Assembly (NCBI RefSeq): GCF_051903065.1
Contig: NZ_CP178438.1
Direction: 5' to 3' (one strand)
Length of the DNA stretch: 64,000 nucleotides
From: Escherichia coli
GTDB lineage: Bacteria > Pseudomonadota > Gammaproteobacteria > Enterobacterales > Enterobacteriaceae
Made by a program: the position numbers and the translations under genes. The notes below the pieces were generated by a model that did no database searches, had not been told where the DNA came from, and saw only the letters and a program-made list of their open reading frames with translations. Below are positions 51,964 through 55,525 of this stretch, one piece after another (the first letter of the stretch is position 1; every line of letters begins with the position of its first letter).

Positions 51964-52179
51964 TTAATCAGTAATGATGACATTTACTGCTGCAGGACCT
52001 TTAGCACCACTCTCTATAGAGAAGGTAACCTTTTGACCTTCAAATAAGGTTCGATAATTATCATTCTGAATCGCAGAAAAATGCACAAACACATCTTTAC
52101 TACCATCAACAGGAGAAATAAAGCCGAAACCTTTATCAGCGTTAAACCATTTTACTAAACCAGTCATTTTATTTGACAT
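51964..52179 (-). CDS. cspB: Cold shock protein CspB
   Basis: 71-aa [44 protein letters not shown]... Confidence 0.9.
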
Positions 52180-52489
52180 TCTACATTCCTTAACTTGAGC
52201 CTTTCGGCATAAATGGTTTGCATAACAGAAACGACTTCGTACTTAATTGGAGAGACTCAAAGAAGGAATAAGTGAATAACACCTGAAATGAGAACTGCTT
52301 TAGTAAACTACTTCGTATATCGTCTGTTCTTCAAACCGACGCAGTCATTAACTCATAGTTGAACATATGAAGCAATGTTTATTTTAGACATCCAGCCACC
52401 TTCAATCCTATCAAAAAAGTAGTTTTCTCCAGGAACGTGTGTATGGTGCACCAGGTTATCAGTATTAAGGAGTTTTTCTGTCCCCTAAA

Positions 52490-53111: not shown

Positions 53112-53864
53112 TTATCTCGTCACCTTCCTCAATTGCGCTTCCGCGTATGCTTCTTCCTGCCAGCACTTTGTTACCAGTTTACCAATGACGTCCGCATACC
53201 CCTTATACCACTGATAATCGGTCAGGTCTGGTACCAGCTTCTGGACATGACGTCGTGCCAGCGTGGTCGGTAAACGACTAAACCGGTTTCCATTACAACG
53301 CCCACAAATCTTATATACCGGTACGCCATGAAACCGGGTTCTTTTTTCATCCAGAACAATCCCTTTACCCTTACACCCTCTGCACGCTGTGCTGGCTTCG
53401 CCCTTACCATGGCAATGCTGACATAGTTCCTTCACCCATTCTTCCTTGATTACAGATTCCCCGCGTCTGTAGTGTTTCACCACTTCGCGCAATACATTAT
53501 AAAATCCCGTACCTGAACAATGCTCACAGCGAGCCTTACTTGCCGCAGACCTGGAGTAATCAGCAAAGGCAAAACTCACGAGGTAAGGAATAATCTGTAA
53601 CCGGATTTCTTCACTCAATTTGTTCAATGTCGGGTTATCCAGTGCCATCGCGTAATTTAGCAGGCCTTCAATCGCAAACTGAGGGTCCTGAACACCAACT
53701 TTTGCCAGAAATAAGGCCAACCCAAGTGGTGCTTTCGACTGCACCATCCCCTGCGCTGCCATTACATCCGTAATTGTTAAACAACCGGTGCCTGTCGCTG
53801 GAGCGTCATCGCTCAATTTTGGAGATTTTGGGGAGTAATATTTTGGTAAGGCTTCAAGGTTCAT
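53112..53864 (-). CDS. quuQ: Late-gene antiterminator Q homologue
   Basis: 250 aa from MNLEALPKYY... with Cys-rich zinc-binding region (CEHCSGTG...CQHCHGKG...CRGCKGKG). Confidence 0.8.
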   Translation of the reverse strand: MNLEALPKYYSPKSPKLSDDAPATGTGCLTITDVMAAQGMVQSKAPLGLALFLAKVGVQDPQFAIEGLLNYAMALDNPTLNKLSEEIRLQIIPYLVSFAFADYSRSAASKARCEHCSGTGFYNVLREVVKHYRRGESVIKEEWVKELCQHCHGKGEASTACRGCKGKGIVLDEKRTRFHGVPVYKICGRCNGNRFSRLPTTLARRHVQKLVPDLTDYQWYKGYADVIGKLVTKCWQEEAYAEAQLRKVTR

Positions 53865-53877
53865 GCTCGTTCTCCAC

Positions 53878-54966
53878 TTACGCCAGTACGCCAATTGCCA
53901 GCGCGCGATCGATAAAACGAAATATCAGCTCCAGTTGGGAGCCATACTTATCTTCAAATGCCACTGTATCCGTATGCAGCTCGTTGTGATGCTTTCTGCA
54001 CAAAGGCAACACAAAGAGATCATGTGCTTTTGTTCCCATTCCGCCCTGCCCGTGACCAATCAGATGATGCGGATCGTCGGCTGGCATACCGCAGCAAGCA
54101 CACGGCTGTGTCTTAACCCAACGTGTGTATTTCTCCTTAACCCAGCGGCGACGTTTAGGCAGCTTCATGAAAGATTCCGGAGACTCTGGATCAACGGTGA
54201 TGCTTACCACCGTCTTTTCCTGTGGTGATTTTTGTTGCTGGTGGGCGTAAGGCAACGGTGCAAGATTTTTTGTGCGTTGTTTCAATATGCTGGTGGCGGT
54301 CTGCTCTCCCGGTACGATGTCGCTTTCGCGGTACACCGAGCAGATTTTTTCCGCTGGTAATCCCAGCGAACGACGCGATACAGCCTCAGGTAGTGCATCC
54401 ACCACCTGATTGCAGACCGCCCACCAGGATAATTCAGCCAAAGATAATTCCCGCTCCTGCGTACCGCTTATTGCGTGACGGATGACGTCAATCACCCATG
54501 CTGTCAGATTTTGTTGAGCAAGCAGCTCCAGTGATTCCGATGTCTGGTCACGCAGTTGGTTGTCGCAGTGCCAGCACAACACCATTGCGCCGGTACCATA
54601 ACGGTGAATGACTGTTTCAGTGTGATGGTAATCGCCATTAGGCCACTGGCAGGATGTAACATGACGTAATAGCCAGTCGGACAATGCGCCAACGCCGCCA
54701 GCAGCACGAATCACCCGTTCGTTACTAAAAAACGGCAGCAATGTTTTGTCTTCCGCCAGCGGCTGGCGAACGGCAGGAACGACTCCGGATGGCAGATTAC
54801 GCATGCTTTTTGGTTCCGGTTCCACCAGCACTCGAGGATTATGAAATATCTGTATGGATTCACGGCCCGGCTTAAGGACCACCAGCCCAAGCTCAGGCAC
54901 CAGAACAGGTCTAAGTAATACCCGCACGTTACCTCCAGATCCGTTGCTGGAAAGTGCGGGACGCAC
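53878..54966 (-). CDS. ydfU: Prophage protein YdfU (DUF968)
   Basis: 362-aa ORF with C-terminal Cys/His cluster (CACCGMPADDPHHLIGHG...CRKHHNELH); true start may be internal. Confidence 0.75.
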   Translation of the reverse strand: MRPALSSNGSGGNVRVLLRPVLVPELGLVVLKPGRESIQIFHNPRVLVEPEPKSMRNLPSGVVPAVRQPLAEDKTLLPFFSNERVIRAAGGVGALSDWLLRHVTSCQWPNGDYHHTETVIHRYGTGAMVLCWHCDNQLRDQTSESLELLAQQNLTAWVIDVIRHAISGTQERELSLAELSWWAVCNQVVDALPEAVSRRSLGLPAEKICSVYRESDIVPGEQTATSILKQRTKNLAPLPYAHQQQKSPQEKTVVSITVDPESPESFMKLPKRRRWVKEKYTRWVKTQPCACCGMPADDPHHLIGHGQGGMGTKAHDLFVLPLCRKHHNELHTDTVAFEDKYGSQLELIFRFIDRALAIGVLA

Positions 54967-55207
54967 GTGGTGGGCGTTCGGAATAAGGCAGCCTGACAGA
55001 GATTATCCAGTGCCGATAGTCGAGACTGAGAGCTTTCTTAACCTCGAACCCGCGCCTGCGGTAAGAATGAATCAGCCATTCGGCCTGTTCTGCAGTGCAT
55101 GGAGGGTGCTGGAACCATTCAGACTTGAATGCGTGAGAATACCGCCCGTGCGTGCAGGCAAGAACGGGCGAATTATCAGAATTGTAATATTTTGCGTTGC
55201 GTGCCAT
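54929..55207 (-). CDS. Hypothetical prophage protein (92 aa)
   Basis: ORF MARNAKYYNSDNSPVLACTHGRYSHAFKSEWFQHPPCTAEQAEWLIH... between rem and ydfU; overlaps the annotated ydfU 5' end, so one of the two starts is probably wrong. Confidence 0.35.
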   Translation of the reverse strand: MARNAKYYNSDNSPVLACTHGRYSHAFKSEWFQHPPCTAEQAEWLIHSYRRRGFEVKKALSLDYRHWIISVRLPYSERPPRASRTFQQRIWR

Positions 55208-55273
55208 CGGTTTTCTCCGGTGGCACGGTGTTACTCAGCGGGAGTTCAGCCCCGCGCAAGATTGTAGATGAGT

Positions 55274-55525
55274 TTATTCTCCTGAAAAAGCAGAAAAGCC
55301 AGCTTTTATTCCGATCTCTTTCAATGCCTGTAATGAAGTGACAAACTCACCTTCGCGCAAGATAAATCCGTCCGTGACCCGAGCATCCACAAAATTAATT
55401 AACGCAGCCCCATTCTTTCGCAAACACATAATGCGGTAATGACTAACAAGATTTCCATTTTCAACGCACACAGCATAGAGGCCATCTTCACAAAAAATTT
55501 TACGCAGTTCTTCGATGTTCATCAT
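55274..55525 (-). CDS. rem: Prophage protein Rem
   Basis: 83-aa ORF MMNIEELRKIFCEDGLYAVCVENGNLVSHYRIM... Confidence 0.8.
   Translation of the reverse strand: MMNIEELRKIFCEDGLYAVCVENGNLVSHYRIMCLRKNGAALINFVDARVTDGFILREGEFVTSLQALKEIGIKAGFSAFSGE

Follow-up and report, generated by a model that had tools for sequence, protein, structure and literature searches.

The two reading frames that appear to collide at the start of ydfU in the Qin cryptic prophage of Escherichia coli are, as judged by comparative analysis, both real genes, and the clash between them is a longest-ORF artefact. Our comparisons place ydfU at positions 53878-54927 on the minus strand of the window (the whole 64,000-nt stretch of DNA analyzed here, from contig NZ_CP178438.1 of assembly GCF_051903065.1), with a GTG start at 54927 and a product of 349 aa. 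Together with the gene for a 92-aa protein that precedes it, ydfU very probably forms a pair of co-oriented genes of a nin-like region, situated upstream of the Q antiterminator gene in a lambdoid prophage and joined by a translational-coupling junction.

Results

Genomic setting of the gene pair

A 901-nt stretch around the 92-aa ORF is 100% identical to E. coli W3110, and the window is E. coli K-12; MG1655 coordinates are obtained by adding 1,589,377 to window coordinates. The region is part of Qin, whose minus strand carries, in order, relBE, hokD, rem, the 92-aa ORF, ydfU and ydfT, the last encoding the Q antiterminator. We take the Qin segment upstream of Q to be the counterpart of the lambda nin region. 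Among 5,426 complete E. coli genomes, 4,426 match the region from rem to ydfU at least in part, 2,795 of these over 80% or more of its length, at one to eight places per genome (median 1). The features on which our argument turns are as follows.

55274..55525, minus strand: rem, the upstream neighbor in K-12, an optional module member in a neighborhood that varies across related loci
55215..55218, minus strand: GGAG, a Shine-Dalgarno-like element 7 nt 5′ of the ATG of the 92-aa gene (anti-Shine-Dalgarno duplex, -6.6 kcal/mol)
54929..55207, minus strand: 92-aa gene, stop codon included (ORF list, conservation, phrog_1212, RefSeq W3110)
55130..55207, minus strand: codons 1-26 of the 92-aa gene, a variable N-terminal extension that is predicted to be disordered (dN/dS 0.6)
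54932..55129, minus strand: codons 27-92, the conserved core (dN/dS 0.11, phrog_1212, AlphaFold2 core)
54932..54936, minus strand: GGAGG, Shine-Dalgarno of ydfU (-10.6 kcal/mol; invariant in 238 loci)
54928..54966, minus strand: 13-codon extension of the longest ydfU frame, outside ydfU and inside the 92-aa gene in the +1 frame (no Shine-Dalgarno; dN/dS 3.5)
53878..54927, minus strand: ydfU (b1560), a 349-aa DUF968 protein of the His-Me finger nuclease family, start GTG 54927

A 66-nt gap separates the 92-aa gene from an upstream ORF in 79 loci, the commonest such ORFs encoding Rem proteins, and in some loci that lack rem the 92-aa gene directly follows the hokD region. Rem itself (83 aa), an optional insert between hokD and the 92-aa gene, matches only phrog_340, a family of unknown function, and has no Pfam match. 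On the other side of the pair, the longest frame of ydfT (53112-53894, minus strand; TTG 53894, 260 aa) overlaps the end of ydfU through the same longest-ORF artefact; RefSeq starts ydfT at ATG 53864 (250 aa), 13 nt past the ydfU stop. Further along, an Rfam match to the cspA thermoregulator (52000-52340, minus strand, 150.8 bits), clipped by the search boundary, is presumably the cspB leader.

The 92-aa frame evolves as a protein-coding gene

A sequence-only reading of this DNA had drawn attention to 38 nt (54929-54966) held in common by an ATG-initiated ORF of 92 aa (54929-55207, minus strand) and the longest ydfU frame, a GTG-initiated ORF of 362 aa (53878-54966, minus strand). The overlap is as described, the ydfU frame being +1 relative to the 92-aa ORF, and we agree that the longest ydfU frame is incompatible with the 92-aa ORF. 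The same reading judged that the 92-aa product does not look random. Its length alone is not beyond chance, since the same DNA holds a spurious 137-aa antisense ORF; it is conservation that puts the 92-aa frame beyond chance. The antisense ORF (54854-55267, plus strand), which is open in K-12, carries at least one stop codon in 73 of 95 unique homologous sequences and is a shadow ORF.

Across the 95 unique sequences, mean column entropies at the first, second and third codon positions of the 92-aa frame are 0.26, 0.26 and 0.61. Pooled Nei-Gojobori dN/dS is 0.22 for the whole frame, 0.11 for residues 27-92 and 0.054 for residues 72-92; when the columns of residues 27-92 are read in shifted frames, it is 3.5 (+1, the ydfU frame) and 1.7 (+2). 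Length varies by indels of two or three codons, in multiples of three only, and the ATG is invariant. A GGAG or AGAG upstream of this ATG is kept in most related loci. The product has 129 protein homologues in E. coli, Shigella, E. albertii and E. marmotae, with identities down to 58%. By these measures, the 92-aa frame is a real gene.

Conservation of 54929-55207 might also be expected of a non-coding element, such as a leader or Rho-utilization region that controls ydfU, or of a recombination-prone mosaic joint. A Rho-dependent terminator does map between rem and ydfU (PMC9160355), the last codons of the frame double as a Shine-Dalgarno and the MG1655 curators annotate no gene there. However, the concentration of variation at third codon positions, a dN/dS of 0.11 where shifted frames exceed 1 and the restriction of indels to multiples of three all speak for translation, as do the confidently predicted AlphaFold2 fold (core pLDDT >90) and the existence of homologues at 30-47% identity in Salmonella, Klebsiella, Yersinia, Edwardsiella, Cronobacter and other phages, similarity to which is detected at the protein level only. 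Moreover, the presence of a Rho site does not preclude a gene, as the lambda nin region illustrates. We consider a non-coding origin of the conservation very improbable.

ydfU starts one nucleotide beyond the upstream stop codon

The junction reads ...ATC TGG AGG TAA C GTG CGG GTA..., in which GTG 54927 lies 1 nt past the TAA of the 92-aa gene and 4 nt past a GGAGG formed by its last two sense codons (TGG-AGG). In 238 related loci gathered from IMG/VR and RefSeq, the junction TGGAGGTAA-N-GTG is kept, the codon equivalent to 54927 being GTG in 237 and ATG in one. The predicted duplex with the anti-Shine-Dalgarno has an energy of -10.6 kcal/mol at 54927, against a local background with a mean of -2.6 kcal/mol and a first percentile of -8.7. 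RefSeq likewise gives ydfU 1050 nt and a start at GTG 54927 in both W3110 and MG1655. The 38-nt conflict arises because ydfU was drawn out to the farthest in-frame upstream GTG (54966); with initiation at GTG 54927, 1 nt past the stop codon of the 92-aa ORF, the conflict is gone.

Two other starts have to be weighed. If ydfU were the longest frame (GTG 54966, 362 aa), the 92-aa ORF would be a chance frame. This is the longest ORF present, and one 330-aa homologue, P0189, covers 99% of the long query in a database search. P0189 is, however, the lone exception among the homologues listed for the long frame, nearly all of which cover 93% of the query (residues 14-189) and thus begin at its residue 14. 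The K-12-type GTG at 54966, 13 codons upstream of 54927, is found in only 47 of the 238 loci; 71 have any start codon farther upstream in the ydfU frame and 167 have none. There is no Shine-Dalgarno at 54966 (+0.1 kcal/mol), and the frame of the extension has a dN/dS of 3.5. The 92-aa frame that would have to be dismissed shows strong purifying selection, and its homologues in other genera are 30-47% identical. There is next to no chance that this longest frame is ydfU: the comparative data already refute the long start, which detection of the N-terminal peptide MRPALSSNGSGGN would revive.

It is also conceivable that the 92-aa gene is real and that ydfU begins at an internal methionine (MRNLPSGVV), which the sequence-only reading placed at about 54807 and whose ATG is in fact at 54804-54802. 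This codon is ATG instead of GTG, and the methionine is conserved in the ydfU alignment. Nevertheless, the 41 codons that precede it show protein-level conservation with a codon-periodic pattern. Across 159 unique ydfU sequences, with codons counted from 54927, mean column entropies at codon positions 1, 2 and 3 are 0.21, 0.07 and 0.37 for codons 1-20 and 0.28, 0.14 and 0.61 for codons 21-40. This coding-type conservation of the first 40 codons argues that 54804 is not the start. These codons are also covered by two profiles from their first positions, phrog_96 aligning to residues 1-349 of the 349-aa protein and phrog_11007 to residues 2-134. The Shine-Dalgarno match of the internal ATG is at background level (-3.5 kcal/mol versus a mean of -2.6 kcal/mol), and initiation there would offer no explanation for 124 nt of conserved coding-like sequence. 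We give very little credence to the internal start and retain GTG 54927. The choice that had been posed, between an internal methionine for ydfU and an unreal 92-aa ORF, overlooked GTG 54927, and both of its branches fail. That reading would have yielded to homologues that back the long start and leave the 92-aa frame unconserved; the homologue alignments gave the opposite.

The small protein is an N-terminally extended member of phrog_1212

Residues 27-92 of the 92-aa product align with positions 1-66 of the 66 positions of phrog_1212 (PHROGs v4, "unknown function"; E 1.7e-35, 121.9 bits), and phage homologues score similarly. A profile search of 1.84 billion cluster representatives returned 72 matches, many of them 65-70 aa long and aligned, from residue 2 of each onward, with residues 28-92, such that F27-K28 of the K-12 protein correspond to M1-K2 of family members. 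Family members are typically 65-69 aa long and start M-K-x-x-W-F, whereas the K-12 protein has 92 aa; the N-terminally extended variant is common to the Escherichia lineage and homologue P0125. We conclude from these alignments that the Escherichia lineage has apparently replaced the ancestral start methionine (now F27) and initiates 26 codons upstream.

The extension is loosely constrained. Its dN/dS of 0.6, compared with approximately 0.7 in the other frames, is barely distinguishable from that of neutral sequence, and residues 1-26 have pLDDT values below 50 and are predicted to be disordered. Both properties would suit a cell that makes only the 66-residue core, with initiation near codon 27 and codons 1-26 serving as untranslated leader, as would the 65-69 aa size of the wider family and its start at the F27 position. 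Yet K-12 has no in-frame ATG, GTG or TTG between codon 2 and the core, and since no other in-frame start precedes the core, translation of the core entails translation of the extension. In addition, ATG 55207 is invariant, a GGAG lies 7 nt upstream of it and, despite 2- and 3-codon indels, the frame is uninterrupted in 95 of 95 unique sequences. Synthesis of the core alone is improbable, and we favor translation of all 92 codons.

AlphaFold2, run with an alignment of 58 sequences, gave a mean pLDDT of 78.7. Residues 28-75 (pLDDT >90) are predicted to adopt a beta-alpha-beta-beta topology, followed by a conserved, basic and aromatic extended tail that ends in QQRIWR. The protein is strongly basic (pI 10.2). 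Its best structural match in BFVD is N15 Orf QD1; apart from this, fold searches returned generic matches only. No sequence relatives were found in the PDB at E < 0.07, and there was no match in Pfam (E <= 1), NCBIfam or PADLOC.

Two functional readings were considered and found no support. The Cys and His residues remarked on in the sequence-only reading are present (C18, C37; H20, H25, H34, H47, H66), but they form no conserved metal site: none of the Cys or His positions is conserved family-wide, members being found in which C37 is replaced by M, L, V or I and H34 by Q or Y, and therefore metal binding, including zinc, is unlikely. A toxin-antitoxin or defense role was also set aside, as PADLOC matched neither the small protein nor Rem nor YdfU and the small protein has no NCBIfam or Pfam match. 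GenBank record ON470583.1 labels a homologue of the 92-aa gene (L248:2501-2779) "toxin to Rem". A literature search on this label found nothing relevant, and rem is absent from many loci that retain the 92-aa gene.

A stop/start junction recurs across the family

Using single members as queries, we located loci of the more diverse family, with named carriers that include Gifsy-2, mEp237, SPN3UB, phiES15, GF-2 and PY54 as well as phages of Klebsiella, Hafnia, Erwinia and Pantoea. The downstream gene is DUF968/YdfU in all E. coli Qin-type loci. In Gifsy-2 and GF-2 the family member is followed by NinG/Rap; in phiES15, mEp237 and a Klebsiella phage it is followed by a YbcO-type nuclease, RusA and Q; and in four IMG/VR loci it lies directly before RusA. 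Upstream neighbors vary (rem, hokD, DUF1367, YbcN, RdgC).

Almost everywhere, the junction has the form TGG-(GGG or AGG)-(TGA or TAA), 1-2 nt, then ATG or GTG. This W-(G/R)-stop-N1-2-start arrangement occurs in all 238 E. coli-type loci and, in most of 46 further loci, stands before NinG, YbcO or RusA. Since the ORF ends in TGG-(GGG/AGG), the terminal Trp-Gly or Trp-Arg codons double as the ribosome-binding site of the downstream gene. The exceptions are of the PY54/N15 type, in which an RdgC-like gene precedes the member and 48 nt lie between the member and an uncharacterized gene for a 175-aa non-nuclease protein. In one IMG/VR contig (L282:2917-3501), an extra G in the G-run of the junction (TGGGGGGTG versus TGGGGGTGA) fuses the phrog_1212 member in frame to YbcO, giving a 194-aa ORF with a Pfam YbcO match at residues 99-190; the two genes may be truly fused there, or the homopolymer may have been misread in sequencing.

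Discussion

Much of what we describe is already on record. In W3110 and in strain 2013C-3250, the boundaries that RefSeq PGAP gives the two genes are identical to ours, the 92-aa product of W3110 being WP_012304870.1, a "hypothetical protein". Besides W3110, PGAP calls the 92-aa ORF in a locus that is approximately 81% identical in DNA, where 1 nt likewise separates it from the DUF968 gene. Thus, the correct boundaries are already in the RefSeq automatic annotation, and phrog_1212 is already in PHROGs. The curated MG1655 record has nothing annotated between ydfU (which ends at 1,644,304) and rem (which starts at 1,644,651). This unannotated gap is 346 nt (window 54929-55273, MG1655 1,644,306-1,644,650), and PGAP calls the gene in W3110 and many other E. 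coli. The absence of the 92-aa gene from MG1655 looks like an omission in the reference annotation. What is slightly new is this omission, the recognition of the K-12 protein as an N-terminally extended phrog_1212 member and the family-wide junction in which the last two codons of one gene are the Shine-Dalgarno of the next. The value is mostly for annotation: the start of ydfU is fixed (GTG 54927, 349 aa), and a conserved 92-codon gene missing from the reference is exposed. The junction habit of phrog_1212 offers a modest lead, open to testing, on what two uncharacterized prophage proteins do.

How might the pair be expressed? In our proposal, the upstream gene (54929-55207) would encode a basic 92-aa phrog_1212 protein with a loosely constrained, disordered 26-residue leader that begins at the upstream ATG. 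The GGAGG within TGG-AGG-TAA would serve as the ribosome-binding site of ydfU, and ribosomes that end at the TAA, or that are recruited by the embedded GGAGG, would initiate at GTG 54927. YdfU synthesis would then follow translation of the small gene, tying the two proteins together. We infer this coupling from the anatomy of the junction only, which has the features of a coupled pair: stop and start within a few nucleotides and a Shine-Dalgarno inside the upstream ORF (TGG AGG TAA C GTG, -10.6 kcal/mol).

Published transcriptomes suggest that this expression is held in check. By microarray and RNA-seq, ydfU rises in rho and nusG mutants and with bicyclomycin (2.36, 1.95, 1.4, 2.77 and 1.76), whereas rem is not raised under those conditions (0.54 to -0.52), and a site upstream of ydfU is listed among the strongest Rho-dependent terminators (PMC9160355). 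As ydfU but not rem is derepressed, a strong Rho-dependent terminator would lie in or near the small gene (54929-55525, minus strand). Rho-dependent termination before ydfU resembles the terminators of the lambda nin region. The small gene may be poorly transcribed or translated in the uninduced cryptic prophage, and the pair is probably not expressed while the K-12 prophage is at rest. Direct evidence that K-12 expresses the small gene was sought and not found.

YdfU itself has a DUF968 (PF06147) Pfam match of 256.6 bits (cut-off, 27.8) at residues 173-359 of the long frame, and weak matches to HNHc_6 (26.2 bits, just under the cut-off of 26.6) and RecA_dep_nuc; its C terminus contains CxxC...HH...H...CxxHH. 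YdfU/DUF968 forms group 7 of the His-Me finger nucleases in a survey that names the K-12 protein and that counts YbcO/DUF1364 and NinG, like DUF968, among these nucleases, all with a presumed role in phage recombination (Jablonska et al., 2017; PMC5714182). The putative His-Me finger assignment of YdfU rests on that survey; the protein is the same, and only its start codon (GTG 54927, 349 aa) is settled here.

What the small protein does can be approached only tentatively. Our best guess, made with low confidence, casts it as a nucleic-acid-binding or accessory factor for the recombination or junction nucleases whose genes it precedes (YdfU/DUF968, YbcO, NinG/Rap, RusA). An accessory or DNA-binding role is preferred because of its constant place before junction nucleases, its basic charge and its conserved basic and aromatic tail. 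Confidence stays low because the partner gene changes and because of the PY54 exception; the non-nuclease neighbor in PY54/N15-type loci and the generic fold matches count against the guess. A more specific version, in our view somewhat less likely still, is that phrog_1212 proteins work specifically with the structure-specific nucleases of lambdoid nin regions (YdfU/DUF968, YbcO, NinG/Rap and RusA) as their activators, inhibitors or DNA-targeting subunits, with the stop/start junction balancing the two. If so, K-12 would carry an unannotated phrog_1212 member that controls YdfU.

The arrangement can be compared with several known systems. In textbook coupled pairs, such as trpB-trpA and those of many phage operons, the downstream Shine-Dalgarno lies inside the end of the upstream coding sequence. 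The 92-aa gene and ydfU resemble the trpB-trpA type in having stop and start 1 nt apart and a GGAGG in the last sense codons. In lambda and DLP12, NinE precedes ybcO and NinF precedes ninG. Like NinE and NinF, the 92-aa protein is small, basic and of unknown function, and its gene lies directly before a nin-region nuclease gene and Q; unlike them, it belongs to a different family, no sequence relationship having been found (no Pfam match at E <= 1). The closest comparison is with phrog_1212 itself, examples of which are Gifsy-2 STM1021.1n, mEp237 gp51, phiES15 gp17, GF-2 ORF72, PY54 ORF47 and N15 "Orf QD1". The K-12 protein shares with the family the motif WF...Y(R/K)xRG...LP...QQ(R/K)xW(G/R), a position in the early region of temperate enterobacterial phages and the stop/start junction. 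It differs in having 92 rather than 65-69 aa, with Phe27 in place of the start Met and a variable 26-residue extension, and in its partner, which is DUF968/YdfU instead of the NinG, YbcO or RusA that accompany other members.
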